From IMG/VR virus record IMGVR_UViG_2974778117_000001, positions 95,515-159,514 of that record: a DNA stretch of 64,000 bases. One strand, written 5' to 3'. Positions 1,805 through 26,968 of this stretch are shown here, piece by piece; within the stretch, counting starts at the first letter, position 1, and the number at the start of each line of letters is the position of its first letter. The notes below the pieces were generated by a model. It was not told where the DNA came from. It saw only the letters and a program-made list of their open reading frames with translations, and ran no database searches. Source of the stretch: a virus (lineage: Duplodnaviria; Caudoviricetes). Both the position numbers and the translations under genes were made by a program.

Positions 1805-2280
1805 ATGATGACACAGAAAAGCAATCACTACGTTGATAAGCAAGTGCTATATGATGATCTGTGTGAGTGGCACTCAAGGAAAGAGGCAGCACTAGCGGCA
1901 GGACAGCCGGCACCACCACTTCCAAACAGCATCGGGGCAGTCATCCTCCGCCTAGCGGATGGCATGGTCAGTCGCCCCAACTTCCGGAATTACACCTGGG
2001 CAGACGAGATGCGCGGCGACGGCATCGAGGCGGCAGTCAAGGCAGCCAACAAGTTTGACCCCAAGCGCGTGAACAAGTCCGGCGAAGTCAATCCCTTTGG
2101 TTTCCTCTCACTGGTCGTCTGGCGCGCGTTGTTAGCCGCATCAAGTTTGAGAAGAAGATCAACAAAGCGAAGATGGACTCCATGATGGACCCGACGACCG
2201 AGACATTCGATCAAGGTCAGGACGAGTACCAGATCGACAATGGAGGCATCAATCAGTTCTTCTACGAGAATCGTGCATGA
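1805..2280 (+). CDS. 55: gp55 late-transcription sigma factor (apparent 1-nt deletion ~2130)
   Basis: HYVDK, RPNFRNYT..DEM..DGIE, NPFGF motifs; after the shift reads SRIKFEKK...YENRA* with ATGA overlap into gp47. Confidence 0.92.
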
Positions 2281-3338: not shown

Positions 3339-5059
3339 GTAGGATCGTATTCCGTAAGGTGCGCTGGAAGAACATCATGTCCTACGGGAACATGTGGACG
3401 GAGATCTATTTGGATCGCAATCCGTCCACCATGATCCTTGGCACGAACGGCGCAGGCAAGTCGACATTCACGGACGTGCTGATGTTCGGTATGTTCGGTA
3501 AGCCATTCCGCAAGATCAAGAAGGGACAGCTGATCAACACCAAGAACGGCAGAGATGCCGTGGTCGAGATCTACTTCGACTGTGATGGTGACGAGTACCT
3601 GATCAGACGAGGCATGAAGCCGGACATCTTTGAGGTCATCAAGAACGGCGAGCTGCTCAACCAAGAGGCATCCAGCCGAGACTATCAGAAGATCCTGGAG
3701 AACACGATCCTCAAGATGGACTACGAGTCGGCTTGTCAGATCGTGTGTGTCGGCAAGGCACAGCACCAGCCGTTCATGCAGCTGGACAGTTCCAAGCGAC
3801 GCAAGTTTGTGGAGGTGATCCTCAATCTGGTTGTTTTCTCGAACATGTCGAAGCTGCACTACAATCAGACATACGAGATCAAGAACAAACTGCAAGACCT
3901 TCGCTCCGCGGTTACGGTGTCGAAGGAGAAGGTCAAGATCCGCCAGCGATACATTGACGATCTGGAGTCTGCGGATCGCCAGAATCAGATGGAAGAGCTG
4001 GAGCGAATCGAGGTTCAGCTGGTCAAGCTCCGAGGTCAGATTGACGAGATCAATAGGCGTCGGACCGAACTGGGCGAAGCGAACCCGATTGACGACAAGG
4101 CGATGGAGAAAGCCAAGTCGGACCTTCAGCAGCACATCCGCTTGCTCACGCAGATGGACACGAAGATCGGAGAGATCAGCAAGCAGCTCAAGTCTCTGAA
4201 CGAGAACACCAACTGCTACGCTTGTCATCAGCCGCTTGACCCGATCAAGATTGACAGCCAGAAGGACGAGCTGCAGGCAAAGTCGATCCAGCTGGAAGGT
4301 GCCAAGTCTGACCTATCCGAGCAGATTAAGAAACTGGAACGAATTGTCGATGACTTCCAGCGTGAGTATCAGGTATACTACGAACATAGATCGAAGCTGT
4401 CCGACTTGGACTCAGAGGCACGCTCGATCCGGAATCGTATTGCAGACCTGGAGGAAGAGAAGTCACGTGAGCGTACAAGCAACGCTGAGAAGATCCAGGA
4501 AGCAAAGGCAGAGCTGGCGGGGATGGAAGACATCTACATCCGACTTGCCGACAAGCTCCAAGAGGTGCAGGAACGCGCCGACTACTTGCAGGTGATCGGA
4601 ACCATCCTGCAAGACAAGGGCATCAAGTCAATGATGATCAAGCGTTTCGTTCCGATCATCAACGCGACCGTCAACAAGCATCTCGCCCACCTTGGGCTAT
4701 TCGCCAAGTTCAGTCTTGACGAGAACTTTGACGAGACTATCCAGTCGCGTGGATTCGACACTCTCGGTTACAACAGCTTCAGCGAAGGCGAGAAGCTGCG
4801 AATGGATATGGCTCTGCTGATGGCGTGGCGTGATATCGCCAAGATGCAGGGTAACGTATCAACCAATCTCCTTGTCTTTGACGAGGTGTTTGACTCCAGC
4901 CTTGATGGAAACGGGGCTGAGGCGCTTGCAGAGATGCTGACACAGATGGAAGGCCTGAACGTGTTCATCATCACTCACGCGCCAGAGAAGATCATGGATA
5001 AGGTCCGATCAGTGATTCGGATTGATCGAGTAGACGGATACAGCAAGTTGGTTTCTTGA
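3335..5059 (+). CDS. 46: gp46 Rad50-like ATPase
   Basis: GTNGAGKST, coiled coil with CYAC zinc hook, FSEGEK, LVFDEVFD. Confidence 0.96.
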   Translation: MSRIVFRKVRWKNIMSYGNMWTEIYLDRNPSTMILGTNGAGKSTFTDVLMFGMFGKPFRKIKKGQLINTKNGRDAVVEIYFDCDGDEYLIRRGMKPDIFEVIKNGELLNQEASSRDYQKILENTILKMDYESACQIVCVGKAQHQPFMQLDSSKRRKFVEVILNLVVFSNMSKLHYNQTYEIKNKLQDLRSAVTVSKEKVKIRQRYIDDLESADRQNQMEELERIEVQLVKLRGQIDEINRRRTELGEANPIDDKAMEKAKSDLQQHIRLLTQMDTKIGEISKQLKSLNENTNCYACHQPLDPIKIDSQKDELQAKSIQLEGAKSDLSEQIKKLERIVDDFQREYQVYYEHRSKLSDLDSEARSIRNRIADLEEEKSRERTSNAEKIQEAKAELAGMEDIYIRLADKLQEVQERADYLQVIGTILQDKGIKSMMIKRFVPIINATVNKHLAHLGLFAKFSLDENFDETIQSRGFDTLGYNSFSEGEKLRMDMALLMAWRDIAKMQGNVSTNLLVFDEVFDSSLDGNGAEALAEMLTQMEGLNVFIITHAPEKIMDKVRSVIRIDRVDGYSKLVS

Positions 5060-5132
5060 CACAGTATCTAGATTCCCTTGGGTTATGAGCCCAACACCAT
5101 TACAATCATTGTTCGTTAAACAGGAGTACATA

Positions 5133-5785
5133 ATGCTTCAGAATGCAACCATCGAAACCCTCGAGAATTTCGCATCGATCAACAAGGGTCTCGTCTTCAA
5201 GCCGGGCAATCGCCTGCGTACCGTCTCGATCCTGAAGAACGTGTTCGCAGTTGCCGAGGTGCCCGACACCTTTGACCGTGAGTTTGCGATCTACGATCTG
5301 AACGAGTTCCTGGCGGTGCTGAGTCTGCTGAACAAGCCGGCGCTGGACTTCAAGGACGAGTACGTGCTGATCACCGACGGCAAGTCGAAGATCAAGTACT
5401 TCTACTCGAGCCCGGCAGTCGTGCAGGCACCGCCGGACAAGGACATTGTCCTGACCGATCCGGAACTGACCCTGACCCTGACCAAGGATGACCTGACCCG
5501 CATCAGCAAGGCATCGGCAGCACTGAAGCTGACCGTCCTGAGCCTGTCGCAGGGTAAGGTGGTCGCCGCTGATCCGACTGCATCGAGCAAGGACGCAGCA
5601 ACAGCCTGAACATCGAAGTCGAGACCTCGGGTGAAAGCGACAACGTGCGCGCCATCAAGATCGAGAACATGAAGATGATCCCGGGCGACTACTCGGTGTC
5701 GGTGTTCGAGCGCGCAGTGGAGTTCAAGAACAAGGACCGCGAGGGTTTGGTCTACATCGTCGCAGTCGAACAGGAGAAGAAGTAA
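5133..5785 (+). CDS. 45: gp45 sliding clamp (apparent 1-nt deletion ~5595)
   Basis: LENFASIN, FAIYDLNEFL; after the shift KIENMKMIPGDYSV...YIVAVE; AGGAG RBS. Confidence 0.92.
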
Positions 5786-6259: not shown

Positions 6260-7198
6260 ATGAGTACTGAACAGTATCTGTGGAATGAAGCCTTCCGTCC
6301 TCACAAGGTGGCAGATTGTATTCTGCCACCGGAGATGAAAAAGTACTTCCAGCAACTGGTGGACGCCAAGAATCTGGATCACATGACTCTGGTCGGTGGT
6401 CCGGGTACTGGCAAGACGACCGTTGCGCGGGCGATGTGTGAAGAGCTGGACATTGACTACATCGTCATCAACGCATCGGAAGAAGGTAACATTGACACAG
6501 TGCGAACCAAGGTGCGTCAGTTCGCGTCCACGGTTTCACTGATGGACGGACACAAGGCGATCATCCTGGACGAGGCGGATTACCTCACCCCGACAGCACA
6601 GGCGGCACTCCGCGGTGCGATTGAAGAGTTCAGCGCCAACTGTCGTTTCATCTTCACCGGCAACTACGCCAACAAGATCATCGACGCGATCAAGTCCCGA
6701 GCTCCGGTCGTGGAGTTCAAGATCGACAAGTCGGATCGACAGCAGCTGATGATCCAGTTCCTGACCCGCGTTGAGGAAGTCCTGAAAGACAAGGGCATCC
6801 TGTATTCGGTGGAAGAGCTGGTTCAGGTCGTCAAGAAGAACTTCCCAGATTACCGCAAGACGTGGAACCTGCTGCAGCGCTATTGCGCGACTGGCGAGTT
6901 GAAGATCAACAGCCAGCAGGGCATCACCGAAGCGACGCTGAAGGAGCTGACCACGCTGCTGAAGGAAAGCAACTTCACCGAGATGCGGAAGTGGATTGTC
7001 GACAACCTTGACAATGACGGTGCAGCTCTTCGACGTGCGATCTACGACAAGGTCAGCCTTGAGATGAAGAAGGCGAGCATCCCCAATCTGGTCCTGATCC
7101 TTGCGGAGTATGATTACAAGGAAGCATTCGTGGTCGACAAAGAGATCAACATGGTGGCCTGCTTGACGACCATCATGACGGAATGCAACTTCGAGTAA
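6260..7198 (+). CDS. 44: gp44 clamp loader AAA+ subunit
   Basis: GGPGTGKTT, INAS, IILDEAD, AQAALR, SR motif. Confidence 0.96.
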   Translation: MSTEQYLWNEAFRPHKVADCILPPEMKKYFQQLVDAKNLDHMTLVGGPGTGKTTVARAMCEELDIDYIVINASEEGNIDTVRTKVRQFASTVSLMDGHKAIILDEADYLTPTAQAALRGAIEEFSANCRFIFTGNYANKIIDAIKSRAPVVEFKIDKSDRQQLMIQFLTRVEEVLKDKGILYSVEELVQVVKKNFPDYRKTWNLLQRYCATGELKINSQQGITEATLKELTTLLKESNFTEMRKWIVDNLDNDGAALRRAIYDKVSLEMKKASIPNLVLILAEYDYKEAFVVDKEINMVACLTTIMTECNFE

Positions 7199-7218
7199 TT
7201 ACAAGTGAGGGATTGGTT

Positions 7219-7608
7219 ATGGCAGAGAAATTGTCGCCTTTTGAGATCACAGGGAACCTGAACGAGAAGAAGGGACACCTGGATGTCAGCGAAGTCGGTT
7301 ATGATGCGTTTGTCATCAATCGCGTGATGTCTAACACCATTGACACGGTGCTGTTTGCCAACGAGATGAATCGTTGCTGGGGCGCTGAAAAGCAATGGCA
7401 GTATGACTTCTACTACTATGGTCTTCCGAAGAAGAAGCGCTACGGGAAGTGGCACAAGCTGACCGAAGAGAAGGACGCGATCAAACTCATTCAAGCCCGG
7501 TTCGGATACAGCCACAACAAGGCTAAGGATGTACTTGACATCCTCCGACCACACCTCCCTCAGATCGAACAAGAACTGAAAACAGGTGGACGCAATGGAA
7601 AGAAGTGA
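7219..7608 (+). CDS. 62: gp62 clamp loader small subunit
   Basis: YDAFVINR, FANEMN, QYDFY, KKKRYGKW; follows gene 44. Confidence 0.92.
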   Translation: MAEKLSPFEITGNLNEKKGHLDVSEVGYDAFVINRVMSNTIDTVLFANEMNRCWGAEKQWQYDFYYYGLPKKKRYGKWHKLTEEKDAIKLIQARFGYSHNKAKDVLDILRPHLPQIEQELKTGGRNGKK

Positions 7609-7612
7609 TGTG

Positions 7613-8014
7613 ATGGATGAGTTTTTCGAGATCGAGGCCTTGGACCGGGACCAGTTCCTGAAGGTCCGCGAGACCTTGACTCGGATCGGTATCAGCACCA
7701 AGCGAACCGATGAAAATGGCAAGCAGACCTTGTGGCAGACATGCCACGTTCTGCATAAGCGTGGACGGTACTACATTTGCCACTTCAAGCAAATGTTCCT
7801 GTTGGACGGTCGCACCAAGTCGACAGACTTCACTGATGAAGACTACGACCGGACCGAGTACATCGTGGCGCTGCTGCAGGATTGGGGTCTGGTAAAGGCT
7901 CTTGATGAAGTGATCAAGCCACCGACCAATGTCATGGTGGTCAAGCACTCCGACAAGGGGAATTGGAATCTGAGATGCAAGTACACAATTGGAGCTAACA
8001 ATGGCAAAGCGTAA
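7613..8014 (+). CDS. regA: RegA translational repressor
   Basis: FLKVRETLTRIG, QTCHVLHKRGRYYICHFK, LLDG. Confidence 0.95.
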   Translation: MDEFFEIEALDRDQFLKVRETLTRIGISTKRTDENGKQTLWQTCHVLHKRGRYYICHFKQMFLLDGRTKSTDFTDEDYDRTEYIVALLQDWGLVKALDEVIKPPTNVMVVKHSDKGNWNLRCKYTIGANNGKA

Positions 8015-8624
8015 GACTGAAGAGAACACCGTCGTAGATCAGAAGGGTCCGGATCTGGGCGAACTGGTGATGAAGAGCCCAGCTGAAATCCTGCCCGGTG
8101 AATCGCCCGTGACCCTGGGTTTCCTGACCGAAGGTGATGCGCCGGTTCCGACCTACGCATCGGCTGAAGCATCCGGCATGGATCTGGCAGCGTATCTGGT
8201 AGAGGGTGGCACGGTTCGCGTTCATGACAGCGCCAACAACGAAACCCAGCGAGCCATCCGCGGACTGAATGGCGAAGCCCGTCATGTCCTGCTGGAACCG
8301 TTTGACCGTGCACTGATCCCGACCGGTGTCAAGGCACAGATCCCGCACGGTTATGCACTGGCGATTCGTCCGCGTTCCGGAACCAGTTTCAAGAAGGGTT
8401 TGGGCCTGACCAATTCGGTTGCGACCATCGACAGCGATTACACGGGTGAGCTGTTCGTCAGCATCATCAACCTGTCGGGTGCGCGTGTCAAGATCGAAGA
8501 CGGTGAGCGTATCGCTCAGATCCTGGTCGAGAAGGTGTATCGCTTGGACGTGACCAAGCTGGAAGCGATCACCAAGGAGACCGAGCGCGGCGAGGGTGGT
8601 TTCGGTTCGACTGGCACGAAGTGA
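8001..8624 (+). CDS. dut: trimeric dUTPase
   Basis: GMDL, RPRSG, TIDSDYTGE, RIAQ, RGEGGFGSTG. Confidence 0.95.
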   Translation: MAKRKTEENTVVDQKGPDLGELVMKSPAEILPGESPVTLGFLTEGDAPVPTYASAEASGMDLAAYLVEGGTVRVHDSANNETQRAIRGLNGEARHVLLEPFDRALIPTGVKAQIPHGYALAIRPRSGTSFKKGLGLTNSVATIDSDYTGELFVSIINLSGARVKIEDGERIAQILVEKVYRLDVTKLEAITKETERGEGGFGSTGTK

Positions 8625-8635
8625 GGGAGTAGTAC

Positions 8636-8902
8636 ATGATCAAGATTGCATTCACGTCTCAGGGTCAGATCATTGGCGATTGGGAAGAGCTGGAAGATGC
8701 TCTGGAGGTCGAGAACCCGGCGATCATCAACGTGACACCGCAAGGCGTCCAGTTGGTTCCGCTGCTGATCATCACTGAGTCGAATCGCATTCAGGTGAAC
8801 TACACAGACATCCTGGGTGGCGCGCTAGTCGAGCCGGTTCCCCAGATGCGGAACGTATACAACGAGCAGTTCGGTAGCGGCATTCAGCTGCTGACCAAGT
8901 AA
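8636..8902 (+). CDS. hypothetical protein of the type found before gene 43 in T4-like phages
   Basis: GGGAG RBS; IIG..LEVENPA, YNEQFGSGI. Confidence 0.7.
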   Translation: MIKIAFTSQGQIIGDWEELEDALEVENPAIINVTPQGVQLVPLLIITESNRIQVNYTDILGGALVEPVPQMRNVYNEQFGSGIQLLTK

Positions 8903-8907
8903 GGGGC

Positions 8908-8937
8908 AAAAAGAGAGCCGGGATCAACCCGGCTCTT
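8908..8937. terminator. intrinsic terminator between convergent genes
   Basis: AGAGCCGGG-ATCAA-CCCGGCTCT hairpin preceded by an A run (U tract on the - strand). Confidence 0.7.
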
Positions 8938-9306
8938 GCCTTGTGACTGCGGACTCTGATCCGCCATATTTTGATGCGATGAAACTTGTTAGTACTTGCG
9001 CTGATGCTACTACTGCTAGGTAGATCAGCCAGATGAACTCCAATCCAGCAGAGCCTGGAGCGGCTGCATTGATTCCGAGGAACGCCACAGTGGCTACAAA
9101 GTATGCGATTGACGACCAGAACTTGTTCGGCGAGACCTTACCGTCCGATCCGAGGAAGAGCGTAGTTAGATCTACTTCGTCAAAGCTTTGAATAAGAAGC
9201 CGGCAAGTATTAACATAAAGACTGCGGAGAACAATGTCCCGGCTACCGGGATCAGGTTCTCTAGAAGCAGTCTTAGCAGCTCTACTGATTGAGAAGGAGA
9301 TGGCAT
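8924..9306 (-). CDS. three-TM membrane protein, putative holin (apparent 1-nt deletion ~9184)
   Basis: Reconstructed MPSPSQSVELLRLLLENLIPVAGTLFSAVFMLILAGFLFKA(F)DEVDLTTLFLGSDGKVSPNKFWSSIAYFVATVAFLGI...EFIWLIYLAVVA; three hydrophobic segments; TAAATA upstream on the - strand. Confidence 0.6.
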
Positions 9307-11986
9307 GTTTTACACGTTCTGTGAGAAAGTAGGGAGCAGAATCTATCACCGGTACGTGACAGCCGATGGTGAGAGAAAGCAAGAAGTGGTATCTGAAGTG
9401 CCTCTGGAACTATTTATGAAGTCCCGTGACGGTGAGGTCCGCTCGCTGTATGGCGACCGTCTGAAGAGGTTCCAGTTCAACAGCATCAGCGAAGCCGCCG
9501 ACTTCGAGAAGCGCATGGAGGGGGTCGAGCCGATCTTCGGACAGACTGACCCAGTCCAGCAGTTCATTTCACAGAAGTACAAGGGCAAGATCAAGTTTGA
9601 CTTCAACAAGTTCCGCATCCTCAACTTCGACATTGAAGTCCGGACTGACGGCTACGATGATGAAGACGAGGCGCAAGTCCGTCGCGTGTTCTCGAATGAA
9701 GCCGAGACCTGGACTGTCGGTGAGATTCGCAACTACGATGGTGCAGCGCAGTATGAAGTCTATGACCTCATGCACGATCGCTGGTATCCGATTGAGAGCT
9801 GTCCTCAGTTGATGGTCGGCGGCTTCCCGGAAGCGGATGAAGCGAAGTATGAGATCACATCCATTGCGATGAAGATGTTCGGCAAGGACAAGAAGATCAC
9901 CCTCGGTCAGAAGGACTATCAGCCGAAGGACAAGAATCAGATCTACACGCGATTCAACAGCGAGGCTGAACTGCTGCTGGAGTTCGTGAACATCGTGCGC
10001 ATGCTGGACCCGGACATCCTGACCGGGTGGAACATCGAAGAATTCGACATTCCGTATGTCGTTCATCGTCTGCAGAAGCTGCACGGCGAAGAGACGGCGA
10101 ATCGCCTCAGCCCGTTCCACAAGGACACGAAGAAGTGCCTGCAGCATTACATCGCTGACAAGGACAACGATATGCCGTCGTATCGCATCCTGGGTGTGAC
10201 GGTTCTGGACGGTCTCAAGCTGTTCAAGAAGTTCGTGCTCCGCAAGTACGAGAGCTATCGACTGGACTACATCGGTGAGTCGGTGGTCAAGGAACGCAAG
10301 ATCGACTACAGCGAGTACAACAACGATCTGAACAAGCTGTATATGATGGACTTCGACAAGTTCATCGCATACAACGAGAAGGACGTTGAGCTGGTCGAGA
10401 AGATCGACAAGAACAAGCAGTTGATCCGACTTGCGATCACCATGATCATGATGACCAAGTCCAAGTACCGAGACGTCATGGGTAAGGTCAAGTTGTGGGA
10501 CAACCTGATCTACAACATGCTCTTGGAAGACAACATCGTGATCCCTCCGGCGGTTCGTCGCAGATCGGAAGGTAAGATCATCGGTGCGTGGGTGAAAGAC
10601 CCGGTGGCAGGTAAGTACCGATACGTTGTGTCGCTCGACTTGACATCGCTGTATCCTTCGATCTGTATGATGTACAACATGTCGCCAGAAACCCTGGTCC
10701 GTGAGGAGATGGGAACCCTTGACTATGTGACACGTTTGGTCGGCGGTGAGGATCTTGCGGTTGACATGAAGGCGAAGGGCTATTGCATGGCGGCGAACGG
10801 TTCGGCTTACAGGCTGGACATTGTCGGCGTTCTACCTCGCGGAATGCGATACGTCTTCGACACGCGTCAAGACTACAAGAAGAAGATGAAGGACGTCAAG
10901 CAGAAGCGAGAGGACGTTCTGGCTGCTGGCGGCAAGAACACAGACCCGGAATACATCGAGTGGGATGAACTGGTGTCGGAGTTCAACGCGGCTCAGGAAG
11001 CAATGAAGGTGCTGGCAAACTCCGGTTACGGCGTGACGGCGCAGGACAGCTTCCGGTACTACAACCGCAGCATTGCCCAGGGTATCACCTTGACGGGTCA
11101 GGTGACCATTCAGACGGTGGTGCTCAAGACGAACGAGTACCTCAACAAGCGATTCGGGACAACTCGAGATTACGTCATCACAGCGGATACGGACTCAATG
11201 TATCTGGCTCTGGAGAACGTGCCGACGAATGCAACCGATGCAGCCGCTGCAATTGAAGAGCTTGACCAGTTTGTCGAGAAGGAGCTTCAGCCGTTCATCG
11301 ATCAGACCTTCCGCGAGTTGTCGGATCGGATGGGATGCCCGAAGAACATGATGGATATGAAGCGCGAAGCTCTCTCGGACGTCGGCATCTGGCGCGCCAA
11401 GAAGAACTACGTGCTGCGCGTTTGGGACATGGAAGGCGTCCGGTACGCGGAACCGGAAATGAAGATGATGGGTATCGAGACTGCCAAGAGCTCGACACCG
11501 ATGATCGTCCGCAAGGAGCTGGAAGAGTGTCTGAAGATCATGTGCTCCGGCACCGAGAAAGAACTTCAAGATGAGCTTGCCCGGTTCAAGAAGGTCTATT
11601 ACAATAGTGGAATCGAGGAGATTGCCAAGCCGCTCGGTGTCTCGGACCTGACCAGCTATTCACTCAATGACAAGCGAATCCCGTATCAGAGCAAGGCAGC
11701 GATCCTGCACAACAAGCTGATCCAAGAGAAGGGGCTGAGCAAGACCGTCGAGCGAATCAGAAACGGCAACAAGGTGAAGCTGATCCTGTTGAAGGAGCGT
11801 AACCCGCTCCGGAACAAGTACATTGCCTTCATCGGTGAGTTGCCGAAGGAGTTTGGTCTGGACGAGTATGTGGATTATGATGGTCAGTATGAATCGACCT
11901 TCATGAGTCCGGTGAAGTCGTTCACCGATCTGATCGGTTGGAAGACAGAACAGATCTCGAGCTTGGAAGATCTTTTCGGTTGGTAA
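9305..11986 (+). CDS. 43: gp43 family B DNA polymerase
   Basis: FDIEV, GWNIEEFD, YNEKDV exonuclease motifs; DLTSLYPS, KVLANSGYG, DTDS; C-terminal SLEDLFG clamp-binding peptide. Confidence 0.98.
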   Translation: MFYTFCEKVGSRIYHRYVTADGERKQEVVSEVPLELFMKSRDGEVRSLYGDRLKRFQFNSISEAADFEKRMEGVEPIFGQTDPVQQFISQKYKGKIKFDFNKFRILNFDIEVRTDGYDDEDEAQVRRVFSNEAETWTVGEIRNYDGAAQYEVYDLMHDRWYPIESCPQLMVGGFPEADEAKYEITSIAMKMFGKDKKITLGQKDYQPKDKNQIYTRFNSEAELLLEFVNIVRMLDPDILTGWNIEEFDIPYVVHRLQKLHGEETANRLSPFHKDTKKCLQHYIADKDNDMPSYRILGVTVLDGLKLFKKFVLRKYESYRLDYIGESVVKERKIDYSEYNNDLNKLYMMDFDKFIAYNEKDVELVEKIDKNKQLIRLAITMIMMTKSKYRDVMGKVKLWDNLIYNMLLEDNIVIPPAVRRRSEGKIIGAWVKDPVAGKYRYVVSLDLTSLYPSICMMYNMSPETLVREEMGTLDYVTRLVGGEDLAVDMKAKGYCMAANGSAYRLDIVGVLPRGMRYVFDTRQDYKKKMKDVKQKREDVLAAGGKNTDPEYIEWDELVSEFNAAQEAMKVLANSGYGVTAQDSFRYYNRSIAQGITLTGQVTIQTVVLKTNEYLNKRFGTTRDYVITADTDSMYLALENVPTNATDAAAAIEELDQFVEKELQPFIDQTFRELSDRMGCPKNMMDMKREALSDVGIWRAKKNYVLRVWDMEGVRYAEPEMKMMGIETAKSSTPMIVRKELEECLKIMCSGTEKELQDELARFKKVYYNSGIEEIAKPLGVSDLTSYSLNDKRIPYQSKAAILHNKLIQEKGLSKTVERIRNGNKVKLILLKERNPLRNKYIAFIGELPKEFGLDEYVDYDGQYESTFMSPVKSFTDLIGWKTEQISSLEDLFGW
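9411..9416 (-). promoter_or_regulatory. putative late promoter (TAAATA) for the holin
   Basis: TATTTA on + strand, about 105 nt upstream of the holin ATG. Confidence 0.5.
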
Positions 11987-14508: not shown

Positions 14509-14527
14509 AATAACTGGAGATTTGAAA

Positions 14528-15778
14528 ATGAGCAAGATCAAAGTAGCTGTCGTTGGTGTTGGTAACTGCTTCTCGTCCCTGTATCAGGGTGTTGGCTACT
14601 ACAGCAACCGTCCCGATGAAGTGATCTCGGGCATCGCCCATGTGGACATTGGTGGCTACAAGGCTACTGATCTGGAGTTCGTCCTTGCTATCGACGTTGA
14701 TCACCGCAAGGTGGGGCAGTCGCTGAGTGACGCGATCTTCGCAGAACCGAACGTCGCGCGTGTGTTCCACACCGAGCCGGCTCCGGGCGCAAATCCGATT
14801 GTCAAGATGGGTGCTCGTCTGGATGGTGTCTCGACGTTCATGGAAACCGAACCGGCAAGCCGTGGCTTCCGCCCGGTCCCGACCGACGAGCCGACCGAAG
14901 CCGCCAAGGCGCGACTGGTTGAACACCTGCGTTCCAGCGGTGCGGACGTTCTTCTGAACTACCTGCCGGTCGGATCGAATCAGGCAACTGAGTTCTACGC
15001 TGAGTGTGCACTGGAAGCGGGCGTGAGCTTCATCAACAACATCCCGGTGCTGAACCTGAACCATCCGGATTGGGAAGACCGCTTCATCGACGCAGGCATT
15101 CCCTACATCGGTTCGGACATCAAGAGCCAGTTCGGCGCTTCGATCCTGAGCCAGATGCTCCAGGAGCTGGCGTTCGACCGCGGTATGGAAGTTGACTTCC
15201 ATCAGCAGCTGAACGTGGGTGGCAACACCGACTTCAACAACATGATGGTTCAGAGCCGTCTGCTGGATAAGAAGGTCTCCAAGGAGAACGTGATCCGTGC
15301 TCAGAATGACCTGCGAGACATCCCGGTCAATGAGGATGCACTGTTCGCCGGTCCGTCCACCTACATCCCGTACCTGAAGGACAACAAGGTCGCCTACTTC
15401 AACCTTCGCCTGCGCGGTTTCGGTGGCGCTCCGGTGGATGTGGACGTCAAGCTGTCGGTGCAGGATTCGGAGAACAGCGCGGGCGTCGTGATTGATGCGA
15501 TCCGATTCATCAAGGTGGCACGTGAGCTGGGCATTCGTGGTTGCCTGCGTGGACCGAGCGCGTTCACCCAGAAGTCGCCGCCGAAGCAGCTGACCATGGA
15601 AGAAGCTAAGTACGAGTGTGACGCACTGGCGAATCGCAAGCTGACCCCGATCACCAAGCGTCAGCTGACGAACCGGTCGGCAAAGGAATTCGCTCGTCAG
15701 GAGCTTGCCGAAGGCGGAATGGACTACTTGCGCGTGTTGGACAAGAAGCGCCAGTCGAATGCAGAGCGTGGAATTTAA
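14528..15778 (+). CDS. ino1: myo-inositol-1-phosphate synthase
   Basis: VAVVGVGNC Rossmann motif, NYLPVGS, DIKSQFGA, QLNVGGNTDF, DNKVA, LSVQDSENSAG, KSPP; GGAG RBS. Confidence 0.93.
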   Translation: MSKIKVAVVGVGNCFSSLYQGVGYYSNRPDEVISGIAHVDIGGYKATDLEFVLAIDVDHRKVGQSLSDAIFAEPNVARVFHTEPAPGANPIVKMGARLDGVSTFMETEPASRGFRPVPTDEPTEAAKARLVEHLRSSGADVLLNYLPVGSNQATEFYAECALEAGVSFINNIPVLNLNHPDWEDRFIDAGIPYIGSDIKSQFGASILSQMLQELAFDRGMEVDFHQQLNVGGNTDFNNMMVQSRLLDKKVSKENVIRAQNDLRDIPVNEDALFAGPSTYIPYLKDNKVAYFNLRLRGFGGAPVDVDVKLSVQDSENSAGVVIDAIRFIKVARELGIRGCLRGPSAFTQKSPPKQLTMEEAKYECDALANRKLTPITKRQLTNRSAKEFARQELAEGGMDYLRVLDKKRQSNAERGI

Positions 15779-15799
15779 CCTTTAGAATCAAGAGGTTAC

Positions 15800-15826
15800 G
15801 TTGAAGGGTCTTCGGACCCTTCAAAC
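15800..15826 (+). terminator. UUCG-capped stem-loop after ino1
   Basis: TTGAAGGGTC-TTCG-GACCCTTCAA; weak U tract. Confidence 0.6.
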
Positions 15827-15891
15827 GTCTTTACCCTTTGAAATCAAGTAGTTATCAAATTCCGCTTAAGAATTAGCCATGAGGGACTATA

Positions 15892-16263
15892 ATGAGAGCG
15901 CAACACTCCTTTGACATTGACGGCGTGATCAGCATTGGCATCCGCCCCAGCCCCGGAGCAATCATCATCACCGGGCGCAGCTATGAAGAACGTGCCGAAA
16001 CGGAAGCGTATCTGAAACACCTTGGCATCAGCAACGATGTCTTTTACAATCCTTTGAAGTGGTCGGAGAAGTCTCGGACCTCGTCGGGCGAGCACAAGGC
16101 GGAGATCATCAACCTGCAGGGAGTCACCCGTCATTTTGAGGATGACCCGGTACAGGCACAAGTGATCCGCGAACGCTGCCCCAATTGCTACGTTGTCGAG
16201 ATTGTCTCCGATCTGGTGGAGCTCGAGAACGTGCGTCATACCTTCACGGGAGAACCGAATTGA
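15892..16263 (+). CDS. small HAD-family phosphatase
   Basis: FDIDG (motif I), ITGR (II), K (III), FEDD (IV). Confidence 0.85.
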   Translation: MRAQHSFDIDGVISIGIRPSPGAIIITGRSYEERAETEAYLKHLGISNDVFYNPLKWSEKSRTSSGEHKAEIINLQGVTRHFEDDPVQAQVIRERCPNCYVVEIVSDLVELENVRHTFTGEPN

Positions 16264-17009
16264 GTAAGAAGATCCTGATCCTGTACAGTGGTGGCTTGGA
16301 TTCCATGATGATGGAGAAGCTGGCACAGTGGACCAACCCGACCGCCGAGATCACCTGCGTGTTCTATGAGCATGGTCAGGACAGTCTGGAAGCTGAGATT
16401 GCAGCGTTGCCGTGGTATGTCAAGCGTCGCAAGCTCGACTGGTTGGACGGAGAAGTGAAGGCAGTCCCCAAGAAGTCTGATCCGTTCGCGGGTGCGATCT
16501 ACATCCCGGGACGTAATCTGGTGTTCGCAGTCACCGCAGCGTCGCAGTTCCTCCCGGACGAGATCTGGATGGGAACTCTGTTCGATGAATGCAACGAGCA
16601 GGCAACCGATAAGAACAACATCTTCCTGGAGAAGACCAACGCGGTTCTCAAGTATGTCCTGAGTCCGTTCGGTAATCCGGTCGTCAAGTTCCCGTTCGTG
16701 GAGCGCGGCTGGACCAAGACTGATGCCCTGGGTTGGCTGCTTGCCAGAGGCGTTGTAAGTAAAGAGGACATTGCGAAGACCACTTCATGCTGGCACAATG
16801 ACGGTCTCCCTTGCGGTGAATGCAAGCAGTGTCTGAAGCGCGCACTGATCATGGATCAGTTCGATATCTATGAACACCATGCCGGACTCCACCCGCTCGA
16901 CCCGACCAACAAGTTCTGTGCTGATCTGATCGAACAGTATGAAGCATGTCTGGAACCGAACATTGACGAGCGCGAAGTCCAGCGATTGATCCGAAGCTGG
17001 AGAGCTTGA
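16260..17009 (+). CDS. queC: QueC-like 7-cyano-7-deazaguanine synthase
   Basis: LYSGGLDS PP-loop, HGQ, YIPGRNL, SCW..CGECKQC zinc site; TTG start with GGGAG RBS. Confidence 0.9.
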   Translation: MSKKILILYSGGLDSMMMEKLAQWTNPTAEITCVFYEHGQDSLEAEIAALPWYVKRRKLDWLDGEVKAVPKKSDPFAGAIYIPGRNLVFAVTAASQFLPDEIWMGTLFDECNEQATDKNNIFLEKTNAVLKYVLSPFGNPVVKFPFVERGWTKTDALGWLLARGVVSKEDIAKTTSCWHNDGLPCGECKQCLKRALIMDQFDIYEHHAGLHPLDPTNKFCADLIEQYEACLEPNIDEREVQRLIRSWRA

Positions 17010-18220
17010 TGAAGATTGGATACGAATACGTGATGTCGGGTCTAGGATACACCCGCATCAAGGGAACGCACCTGATTGATTGGACGCATCACAAGTTCGA
17101 GCGTGACTTCCATGATTCCAAGTTTGCGATCCTGTACAACGCATTCACAGAAGCAGAGTATGGACGTCGATTCAAGGACGTCCATTGCAACGTGTATGCC
17201 GACTCGGGCGGTCTGCAGATGATGACCCGAAACCTCGGAATCACGCCGGAACTGAAGGACAAGGTCTATCAGAACCAGTCCGACTGTTCGCAGTTCGCCA
17301 TGTGCTTTGACGAGATTCCTCTCCGCAAGGCAGAAGATAAGGGCAAGATCGGCAGCCAGCAGGGTCGCTTCTTTGATCGAACCCTGATCAAGGAGAAGGC
17401 AACCGAGACCGCGCTGAACATCCGTCGTCAGATCGAGCTCTTTGAGGAGACTGGCACGGCGGCGCGTCCGGTGGCAATTATCCAAGGCAACTGTGCCGAG
17501 ACGATGCTGGAATGGGCTGATGTGTTGTTCGATCAGGTCGGCGACAAGGCTGACAAGATCGCATCGGTGGCTATCTCCGGTATCTGCATTGGCAACAAGA
17601 CGATGGAGGAACTGGAACGCAGCTTTGTGTTCAGTCAGATCCATCGGAACTACAAGATCGATCACCTCCACTTGCTGGGAGTCGGATCGGTCAATCGTGT
17701 GTCACCGTTTGTGGTCTTCGACCGCTTGCTGGAACGAGACATCTTGATCAGCTATGATAGCACGTCGCACGTCCAGTCGACAACCTACGGCTATCACTTC
17801 TGGGAAGAAGGTCTCGTCAAGATCCAGAAGGGCTACTACCACAAGTGGGATGACATGGCGGCGCGTATCGCCGAGTTCTCGGAAGGCACGTTCGTTGTTG
17901 ATGGTCCGGAGCTGTACAAGCTCTGCAACACCAACATCAAGGGCATGACCGACGAACAGAAGGACAAGGTACGCGATGCATTGTTCATGATGGCGGCAAT
18001 TCAGGCATACAAGATGTCTGACTTCGTGGAACGGACATGCAAGGACTTCGAGAGCAGCCTGATCCATCACGATCAGCACTTGTGGCTCCCATTGCGAGCA
18101 CTTCACGATGATGTGTCGACGGTGCAGGACTTCAATCAGTGGCGTCGGGACTTCCAGCGCTACATCCCGACAAGTCGTGTATCTTCTTCGCATAACTCCT
18201 TGGATGACCTGTTCGGTTAA
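17009..18220 (+). CDS. dpdA: TGT-fold base-exchange enzyme, DpdA-like DNA 7-deazaguanine transglycosylase
   Basis: ADSGGLQ, FDEIP, IIQG, HLHLLGVG, SYDSTS; flanked by queC and queE; ends SLDDLFG. Confidence 0.85.
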   Translation: MKIGYEYVMSGLGYTRIKGTHLIDWTHHKFERDFHDSKFAILYNAFTEAEYGRRFKDVHCNVYADSGGLQMMTRNLGITPELKDKVYQNQSDCSQFAMCFDEIPLRKAEDKGKIGSQQGRFFDRTLIKEKATETALNIRRQIELFEETGTAARPVAIIQGNCAETMLEWADVLFDQVGDKADKIASVAISGICIGNKTMEELERSFVFSQIHRNYKIDHLHLLGVGSVNRVSPFVVFDRLLERDILISYDSTSHVQSTTYGYHFWEEGLVKIQKGYYHKWDDMAARIAEFSEGTFVVDGPELYKLCNTNIKGMTDEQKDKVRDALFMMAAIQAYKMSDFVERTCKDFESSLIHHDQHLWLPLRALHDDVSTVQDFNQWRRDFQRYIPTSRVSSSHNSLDDLFG

Positions 18221-18254: not shown

Positions 18255-19147
18255 ATGGCAAAGTTTGAAGTATCCGAAGTGTTCATGTCGTTGGAAGGTG
18301 AGGCACAATTCACCTTCCATCCGACTGCATACATTCGGTTTGCACGGTGCAACCTGAGTTGCCCGTTTTCAACAACCCGGAACGTGAGAAGACGCCGACC
18401 GGGTATGCGCCGCTGACCTTCGACCCGAAGGATTACAGCAAGCTGGAAGAAATTCCGCTGATCACCAAGGGTTGCGATTCGCAGTATGCGGTGAACCCGA
18501 TCTTCTCTCACATGTGGAAGAAGCTGGAAGCGGACGAGCTGGTTGATGAGTTGCTCTCGGTGATTCCGGGTAACAAGCTGGTGTATGACACGGGTTTGCC
18601 GGTGATCGTGAGTCTGACTGGCGGTGAGCCGACGCTGAAGTGGAAGCAGCTTCCAGAGATCATGTTCCATGAGAAGATGAAGGATTGCAAGCACTTCTTG
18701 GTCGAGACCAATTGCGCCGTCCCATTCAAGGACGAGTTCATCAGTCAGATCCACAAGTGGCTCAACGAGGATGACAGTCGTCAGTGGACGTGGTCGAACA
18801 GTCCGAAGCTGAACTCCAGCGGTCACACCCGAACCGAGGCGATCAAGCCTGCGATTGCTCTGATGCAATCGGCGTTGTTCAAGTCCAACGCTGGTCAGAT
18901 CAATCAGTATTTCAAGTTCGTGGTAGACGGTTCGGAAGAAGACTACGCGGAAGTGAAAGAGGTCATGAAGATCTATCATGACGCTGGTCTGGCTCTGGAC
19001 ACTCCGATCTGGATCATGCCTCAGGCTTGCACGCAGGAACAGCAAGTGGAGCTGGCGCGATCAGTTGCACGTCGCTGCATGGTCGAAGGCTGGCTGTACT
19101 CACATCGTGTTCAGAATGACCTCTGGGGTAATGGAGTTGGCACTTGA
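18255..19147 (+). CDS. queE: QueE 7-carboxy-7-deazaguanine synthase, radical SAM (apparent 1-nt deletion ~18367)
   Basis: EVFMSLEGE, IRFARCNLSC...GCDS, TGGEP, VETN, SPKL, KFVV, IMP, HRVQ..LWGN. Confidence 0.92.
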
Positions 19148-25822: not shown

Positions 25823-26220
25823 TCATCCCAAATGAAGGACAGGGCCTGAACAAGAAGCGACATCTGATGCCGCAGATTTCCGACTACAATGCCTTCATCG
25901 CCGATCTCGAGTCGGAGGGTGTTGACGTGACCACGGTCATGATCAAAGCCTCCCGTCTCACTCCGACCCAGTCCAACTTCAACGAGGACAAGGTCAACCG
26001 GATGATCGAGGATGAAAGCTGGAAGCGCGGAGCCATCGTGTCGTCAAAGGACGATTGCGTTCTGGACGGTCATCACAGATGGCTGGCGGCTGCACAGGAT
26101 GATTCCTCAATCCGTACCCGTCGAATCGGGATGAACATTGAGGATCTGCTCGCGTTCGTCAAGGACAAGAGCTATGTTGAATACAAGAAGATCAATGAGG
26201 CTAGACAATGGGCAAACTGA
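25819..26220 (+). CDS. ParB/Srx-like domain protein
   Basis: MPQI, LTPTQ, VLDGHHRW. Confidence 0.75.
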   Translation: MIIPNEGQGLNKKRHLMPQISDYNAFIADLESEGVDVTTVMIKASRLTPTQSNFNEDKVNRMIEDESWKRGAIVSSKDDCVLDGHHRWLAAAQDDSSIRTRRIGMNIEDLLAFVKDKSYVEYKKINEARQWAN

Positions 26221-26968
26221 GAAAGCCGACAGGCATCACCTTTGAGCTGGAACTGACCGAGCTTGGCAAGACCGTCAAGTATCGTCCGTTCAAGCTGAAG
26301 GAACAGAAGAAGCTGCTGCTTGCATCCGGCTTGAAAGACAAAGCCGTGATGACCAATGCCCTGCTTGACATCGTGGAACAATGTACGTTCGGTGAACTGA
26401 ATGTTCGCAAGCTGCCGATGCACATCACGGACTATCTGTTCACCAAGATCTACATCAAGTCGGTCGGTAACATGAGTCAAGCACAGTTTGAATGTGCGGG
26501 CGAAGTCATCGAGAAGGATGATGAAGGACATGATCATAAGGTTCCGTGCGGCGTCAAGCTGAACCTGAACCTTGATCTGGAACGTGCGACTCTCGTCTAT
26601 CCGGACACTTACCGCCCGAACGAGACGATTGAGCTGGAAGATGGGATGTTCGTCCGCCTCCGAGTTCCGACGTTTGAAGAACAACAGAAGATCGACTTCT
26701 CCAAGTCACTGACTGACGTCACCGACCAGTTCATCGTGTCGCTGATCGAAGCCATCGTGGATGGAGAAGAAATGCAGATTCCGGGTCAGGACGTCACCCC
26801 AGACGAGGTGGTGGAATGGCTGGACGAACTGTCTGCATCCTCAATCGAGAAGATCACAGGCTTCCTGCAGAATCTCCCCCAGTTGACGATGGACGTCAAC
26901 GTGACCTGCCCCAAATGTGGTAGGAAGGAGGAGTTCAAGCTCACGGGCCTTGAGGATTTTTCGGCTGA
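26208..26968 (+). CDS. 26: gp26-like baseplate hub / tail assembly protein
   Basis: VKYRPFKLKEQKKLL, IYIKSVG, CPKCG, LTGLEDF(F)G*; one T apparently missing at ~26960. Confidence 0.85.

Follow-up and report, generated by a model that had tools for sequence, protein, structure and literature searches.

How does an enzyme that exchanges bases in phage DNA find that DNA? In the published view 7-deazaguanine enters phage DNA after replication, and it is an open question both how the transglycosylase DpdA finds its substrate and why the extent of modification spans <0.1% to 100%. A gene that bears on these questions lies in a 64-kb stretch (hereafter the window) of the 159.5-kb genome of a T4-like myovirus of Stenotrophomonas maltophilia, genus Menderavirus (IMG/VR record IMGVR_UViG_2974778117_000001, positions 95,515 to 159,514). 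Its product, a DpdA of the DpdA2 family, ends in SLDDLFG, and the DNA polymerase of the same phage ends in SLEDLFGW. We consider it likely that the SLDDLFG tail is a docking peptide for the gp45 sliding clamp. DpdA thus probably rides the replication clamp, with gp45 binding and coupling to replication being what we infer from comparison of the sequences.

Judged by its profile match and predicted structure, the product of 17009-18220 belongs to the DpdA2 family. The open reading frame (ORF) spans 17006/17009-18220 on the + strand, with the ATG at 17009 as its real start, and the protein matches PHROG 10773 (E 4e-162). A Pfam search and a sequence-profile search of the Protein Data Bank (PDB) with a 52-sequence alignment gave no match for the protein; such sequence searches missed DpdA2 in earlier work as well (PMC6884629). 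The fold was therefore established by AlphaFold2 and Foldseek. The AlphaFold2 model, built with 52 homologues in the alignment, had a mean predicted local distance difference test score (pLDDT) of 93.6 and a predicted template modelling score (pTM) of 0.91. Foldseek assigned it the tRNA-guanine transglycosylase (TGT) fold with a probability of 1.0, matching many TGT structures and the DNA preQ0 insertase DpdA (7ui4); the TM-score was ~0.5 and the model has the (beta/alpha)8 architecture of the fold. D65-S-G-G-L-Q and D250-S251 are invariant in the 52-sequence alignment, and were likened to the TGT catalytic Asp by motif, not by superposition. When compared by tblastn with the Schizotequatrovirus phages KVP40, VH7D and phi-ST2, DpdA showed 34-36% identity over residues 7-260 (E 4e-37 to 5e-35), a match that covers 63% of the query, the C-terminal third having diverged. 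A Pfam TGT (PF01702) search of the phage 9g record also gave no match, as the PF01702 model fails to detect DpdA1. Clustering with genes of the preQ0 pathway was confirmed, with folE, queC and queE around dpdA, and the most likely role of the enzyme is to replace guanine in duplex phage DNA by a 7-deazaguanine that the neighbouring FolE, QueC and QueE make. An earlier reading of the locus, made from the sequence only, had argued that the tail points to DNA rather than tRNA as the substrate. This agrees with the behaviour of the DpdA2 enzymes of Vibrio phages VH7D and nt-1, which inserted preQ1/preQ0 into DNA in E. coli (PMC10516641).

The same sequence-only reading had noticed the two C-termini, and both were found as it described them: in the window translation DpdA ends ...RVSSSHNSLDDLFG (NSLDDLFG, then stop) and the polymerase ...EQISSLEDLFGW (SSLEDLFGW, then stop). 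The DpdA peptide considered as the candidate gp45 ligand is SSSHNSLDDLFG. The T4 motifs that it cited were also verified, as in the T4 record (NC_000866) gp43 ends KASLDFLFG and gp55 ends SLDFLYEAND, both of them gp45 ligands (PMC2988020). A single substitution thus separates SLDDLFG from SLDFLFG, the tail of T4 gp43. In T4, gp43, gp55 and gp33 all use their acidic-hydrophobic C-termini to bind one face of gp45, and these C-termini can replace one another (PMC2988020). T4 ligase docks through an internal loop, LDFLF, with a dissociation constant of ~10.7 uM for gp45, and the crystal shows this loop as a helix (PMC6212786). The pattern [ST]L[DE][DEF]L[FL] has exactly two matches in the six-frame translation of the window (~128,000 positions), each 1-2 residues ahead of the stop codon of a real gene, dpdA and the polymerase gene. 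When a looser pattern was applied to the last 12 residues of the 2173 ORFs of at least 40 aa in the 159.5-kb genome, the credible genes found were the same two only. The tails are encoded by AGC TTG GAA GAT CTT TTC GGT in the polymerase gene and TCC TTG GAT GAC CTG TTC GGT in dpdA. As the synonymous codons differ, a recent DNA copy of the tail from the polymerase gene was ruled out.

The predicted structure has the layout expected of a docking peptide. The folded core of the model ends near residue 385, and pLDDT drops from ~96 to 73 to 56 across the last two 10-residue blocks. The linker that follows the core has no secondary structure assigned by DSSP and no consensus residues in the 52-sequence alignment, being variable in both length and sequence, while the motif leucine, L398, is conserved in at least 90% of that alignment. 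As in a short linear docking motif, a linker without consensus leads to a conserved leucine. In the model the tail makes no contacts with the core, and its residues 398-402 (LDDLF) are folded into a short helix; this prediction fits the helical conformation of the T4 ligase peptide LDFLF bound to gp45 in the crystal (PMC6212786).

Conservation of the tail in homologues had been named by the sequence-only reading as a check on its proposal, and most homologues proved to keep it. We used three independent samples (90%-identity clusters, IMG/VR, and representatives of 50%-identity clusters), together more than 300 homologues, with the strict tail defined as [LI][DE]x[LFM]F followed by 0-2 residues. 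Among the best 120 clusters at 90% identity, most of them 28-38% identical to the query, 59 had the strict tail and 104 a relaxed form, and of the 16 that remained, most close with a related acidic-hydrophobic peptide. In IMG/VR the tail is present in each of the 78 homologues whose 3' end is complete. In the 50%-identity representatives (word-index-free search, 1.84 billion), at least 117 of the 144 full-length top matches fit the patterns and most of the remaining 27 resemble the tail (TFDDFFE, SLEDFV and ILEFFN, for example). The consensus for the family is (T/S/N)-L-(E/D)-x-(F/L)-F-(x)0-1-COOH, and a (T/S)L(E/D)x(F/L)F tail is retained in ~80-100% of homologues despite a core identity of only ~30%. 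As background, the strict tail occurs in 80 of 1635 ORFs of at least 100 aa from the same loci. Beyond DpdA-length ORFs, one truncated DpdA and the polymerases in the flanks, only four other proteins have it: the baseplate protein gp26, a GT1 glycosyltransferase encoded beside dpdA, a deoxyribosyltransferase-like protein and a 298-aa protein.

The form of the tail also follows the polymerase of the same phage. DpdA and polymerase were paired in 25 genomes or long contigs, in which 22 of the DpdAs bear a tail. The polymerase was not found on 7 of the 25 metagenomic fragments searched, and at locus L062 it ran beyond the 10-kb flank; for these DpdAs the flanks by themselves gave no pair. Tails were assigned to the classes LF, FF, TLDF and LxxF, and the class of DpdA was that of its own polymerase in 22 of 22 tail-bearing DpdAs, a concordance given here as descriptive. 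The LF class includes the window pair, X1 (polymerase SLESLFG, DpdA SLEELFG) and ACP17 (SLDDLFE, TLDELFE), and the FF class BUCT-ZZ01 (TLDDFFS, SLDSFFD), L072 (SLDDFF, DLEDFF) and L062 (DLTDFFE, TLSEFFA). Shorter endings are seen at L075 (NTLDF, NILDL) and L088 (LLDFG, LELEF); as at L072, these run directly into the stop codon. Each trait makes four state changes on the tree of DpdA cores, so that there are only about four independent changes. Tail identity was 4.41 positions for DpdA and its own polymerase and 3.75 for shuffled pairs (p ~0.002, with one representative per clade and phylogeny not corrected). Taken as a whole, the matching of the two tails is suggestive of a common partner.

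The tail of the baseplate hub protein gp26 served as a control. It has an ending of the form GL(E/D)xFF(x), directly following a CxxC zinc-ribbon-like element, in the window (~26200-26960), at L014 (19121-19882) and at L133, L134, L135, L136 and L138. The individual ends are GLEDFFG in Moby, GLDDFFL in X1, GLDDFFV in ACP17, GLETFFA in ZZ01, GLQDFFH in pf16, GIEDFFV in KVP40 and GLKEFFELL in T4. In all T4-like phages examined this tail stays FF, even where polymerase and DpdA are both of the LF class. As a tail that is constant and independent of the polymerase class, it was set aside as a look-alike rather than taken for another clamp client.

Matching tails show that there is a common partner, not which one it is. 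The DpdA tail could instead dock on another protein that the polymerase tail also touches, or on a component of the replisome or of late transcription, and the similar tail of gp26, which has no known link to the clamp, leans the same way. We regard this as improbable. The homologous gp43 tail of T4 and RB69 has one established ligand, gp45 (PMC2988020, PMC6212786), on which the gp43, gp55 and gp33 tails can substitute for each other, and neither study describes a second partner.

The tail might also act on DpdA itself, in dimerisation, autoinhibition or stability, and resemble the polymerase tail through convergence on a simple acidic-hydrophobic peptide. TGT enzymes are dimers, the motif is short and of simple composition, the family works in E. 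coli without a phage clamp and one clade has lost the tail. A role of this kind seems unlikely, as in the model the tail stands free of the core with a low pLDDT, and the linker before it varies in length and sequence. Nor would it predict that the quirks of a lineage are common to DpdA and its own polymerase: the terminal E of ACP17, the short TLDF ending, FF versus LF, and the T or S at the acidic position in both proteins of L062.

Hydrophobic C-termini can be protease tags, and the tail could in principle be a turnover signal through which a host protease limits the lifetime of polymerase and DpdA; this is very unlikely, since acidic residues and an exact likeness to a crystallographic clamp ligand are atypical of known tags, and we found no support for it. 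Chance resemblance, imaginable for a motif of only 6-7 residues, is refuted by conservation and its probability is negligible, given that both of the window's matches are C-terminal and that hundreds of homologues keep the tail.

Several observations weigh against docking of DpdA on the clamp, or against its importance. In the long-branched clade of KVP40, K566 and pf16 the motif is absent (KVP40 ends ...AEFPAFKEQE) or degenerate (TLDLMCA in pf16), while the polymerases of these phages do carry the tail, as TLESFFG or SLEDFFS. The only DpdA2 enzymes tested at the bench, those of VH7D and nt-1, belong to this tail-less KVP40-type clade, and in E. coli, where there is no phage clamp, they still modify plasmid DNA (PMC10516641). 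The clamp is thus not needed for catalysis, and would be an enhancer or targeting device at most. In T4 the share of DNA modified was judged to depend mainly on factors other than the interaction of alpha-glucosyltransferase (alpha-GT) with gp45 (PMC13216743). The literature on Menderavirus yielded no measured DNA modification. The LF and FF classes alone offer 1-2 independent contrasts and leave a sign test without power, which is why the 22/22 concordance and the four changes are given as descriptive. Finally, the similar tail of the baseplate protein gp26 shows that the carriers of such peptides need not be DNA enzymes. The loci of the divergent clade are L005 (KVP40, 3989-5368), L007 (K566, 3992-5365) and L006 (pf16, 7995-9317). 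Their C-terminal third has diverged, and a T-x-(D/E)-(F/Y)-P-x-F element is common to the tails of KVP40 and K566.

Docking of the DpdA tail on gp45 remains the reading that we prefer. The sequence-only reading had proposed that base exchange is tethered to the sliding clamp, and the comparisons lend this support: the tail is conserved, its class is that of the polymerase, it sits on a flexible linker, and the genome encodes both gp45 (5133-5785) and the gp44/62 loader (6260-7608). We would picture the tail, on its linker of ~11 residues, docking in the gp45 pocket. Clamps loaded at forks and then left on the new duplex would hold DpdA on fresh phage DNA, raising its local concentration and letting it scan along the DNA. 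Tethering would also bias the enzyme to replicating phage DNA over tRNA or host DNA, and DpdA would share the three sites of the gp45 trimer with the other clients. A tail working in this way would improve targeting or efficiency. There is a precedent for such an arrangement in T4 alpha-GT, which co-purifies with gp45 (PMC13216743).

Three of the four other proteins with the strict tail may belong to the same group. In a complete 162.9-kb IMG/VR genome (L072), the gene directly upstream of dpdA (8626-9993, + strand) encodes a GT1 glycosyltransferase (Pfam Glycos_transf_1, E 6e-11) that ends NLDAFFG; the polymerase and DpdA of this phage end in the FF form given above. It is a second candidate for a clamp-tethered DNA-modifying enzyme. 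A 134-aa nucleoside 2-deoxyribosyltransferase-like protein (L031, 5949-6353, + strand) ends ALDELF, and the 298-aa protein (L087, 4227-5123, + strand), which has no Pfam or PHROG match, ends NTLESLFA. Both loci hold a tail-bearing DpdA, and the endings make these two proteins possible further gp45 clients.

A wider and more tentative idea is that T4-like phages have a replication-coupled toolbelt, in which DpdA, the GT1 enzyme and the deoxyribosyltransferase-like protein alternate on gp45 and the tail sets the fraction of bases modified. We hold this to be rather doubtful. If true, it would place hypermodification right behind the fork, and the absence of the tail would explain why <0.1% of G is modified in KVP40-type phages. 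In the DpdA2 phages tested, <0.1% of G was modified (PMC10516641).

The features of the window that bear on these arguments are given in Table 1.

Table 1. Positions of dpdA, its tail, its neighbours and the clamp-related genes in the window
Feature	Position	Strand	Remarks
DpdA2-family DNA-guanine (7-deazaguanine) transglycosylase gene, 403 aa	17009..18220	+	stop codon 18218-18220
Flexible linker, ~residues 386-396 (IPTSRVSSSHN)	18164..18196	+	between folded core and tail
C-terminal peptide SLDDLFG, candidate gp45 clamp-docking motif	18197..18217	+	directly before stop codon
gp45 sliding clamp, presumed receptor	5133..5785	+	Moby orthologue annotated as T4 gp45 homologue
gp44 clamp-loader subunit	6260..7198	+	ORF list; Moby annotation, T4 gp44/gp62 homology
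gp62 loader subunit	~7219-7608		follows gp44; Moby annotation, T4 gp44/gp62 homology
gp43-type family-B DNA polymerase	9305..11986	+	Pfam DNA_pol_B and exonuclease domain
Polymerase C-terminal peptide SLEDLFGW	11960..11983	+	counterpart of T4 gp43 SLDFLFG clamp-binding tail
gp55 late sigma factor	1805..2278	+	ends ...GGINQFFYENRA; frameshifted in assembly ~2129
queC-like gene	16260..17009	+	Pfam QueC, PHROG 1550, Moby annotation; directly upstream of dpdA
queE-like radical-SAM gene	18255..19147	+	PHROG 2076 matches both pieces; directly downstream of dpdA

The window DNA is 96-99% identical to phages Moby, Mendera, YB07, BUCT608 and Ps15, and it holds a replication module of the T4 type: gp55, gp47/46, the gp45 clamp, the gp44/62 loader, regA and gp43, together with uvsX, gp41 helicase, gp61 primase, RNase H, gp33, gp59 and gp32. 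The polymerase matches PHROG 262 (E 1e-271), and the Moby annotation gives it as homologous to T4 gp43. The end of the window gp55 is the counterpart of the T4 gp55 clamp epitope, SLDFLYEAND.

Between uvsX and gp41 lies the 7-deazaguanine cluster, consisting of folE, ino1, a HAD-like gene, queC, the TGT-fold gene and queE. The ATG of dpdA overlaps the queC stop as TGATG (17007-17011), which suggests that the two genes are translationally coupled. In the relative Ps15, QueD is located elsewhere in the genome (PMC9025141). Two further genes lie between folE and queC (14522-16263), one for a myo-inositol-1-phosphate synthase (Pfam Inos-1-P_synth, E 1e-21) and a small one of the HAD/PNK-phosphatase-like type; both are conserved in Menderavirus.

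Compared with Moby, the window has lost single bases at 2129, 5595, 9176, 13783, 18366, 21020, 21144, 23484, 24376, 25519, 26957, 29948, 30611, 32085, 32513 and 33250, mostly in short homopolymer runs. The losses break essential genes, among them gp55, the gp45 clamp, folE, queE, the gp26 tail and others. Thus gp45 is readable in two frames, with a 1-nt deletion near 5595, and both halves were translated; queE is split by a 1-nt deletion at ~18366 and is intact in Moby. As every indel is a deletion on the window side, sequencing or assembly error is indicated rather than pseudogenes, and ORFs in the window must be read with frameshifts in mind.

A full-text search of the published literature for DpdA together with the sliding clamp found no link between the two, and the word "clamp" is absent from the main DpdA survey (PMC10516641). 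DpdA2 and the gp45-binding tail are each known; their combination, and its near-universality outside the KVP40 clade, was not found described in the literature searched. In its core our enzyme resembles the DpdA2 of nt-1 and VH7D (PMC6884629, PMC10516641), with a homologous TGT-fold domain, neighbours of the folE/queC/queE type and a T4-like myovirus as its carrier. It differs in that those enzymes are KVP40-like, with a diverged C-terminal part that lacks a clamp-type tail, and a clamp goes unmentioned in the papers on them.

Compared with the known clamp clients of T4 and RB69 (gp43, gp55 and gp33), DpdA likewise has an (S/T)LDxLF-type peptide at its extreme C-terminus behind a flexible linker. 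What differs is the carrier: the T4 clients are a polymerase, a sigma factor, a co-activator and, with its internal loop, a ligase, whereas DpdA is a hypermodification enzyme that exchanges bases in DNA. The closest parallel in function is T4 alpha-GT, a post-replicative DNA-modifying enzyme that binds gp45 (Sommer et al. 2004, cited and confirmed in PMC13216743), as DpdA is predicted to do. Unlike DpdA, alpha-GT has no canonical C-terminal tail, ending ...KEQFDIITK, and the chemistry is different, with alpha-GT glucosylating hydroxymethylcytosine and DpdA exchanging the base.

A clamp-docking peptide on most DpdA2 members would provide a concrete mechanism, recruitment to newly replicated DNA through gp45, and a hypermodification enzyme would join the polymerase, gp55, gp33, ligase and alpha-GT among the gp45 clients. 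The tail may also be of practical use, as a simple sequence marker separating DNA-directed from tRNA-directed TGT homologues in phage genomes. Adding or removing it suggests a way to tune modification in laboratory phages for studies of restriction evasion. In eukaryotes, DNMT1 and UNG2 have PCNA-interacting protein (PIP) boxes that bring these base-modifying and base-excising enzymes to newly replicated DNA through PCNA. The logic is the same as that proposed here for DpdA, but the proteins are unrelated and both the clamp and the motif are different.

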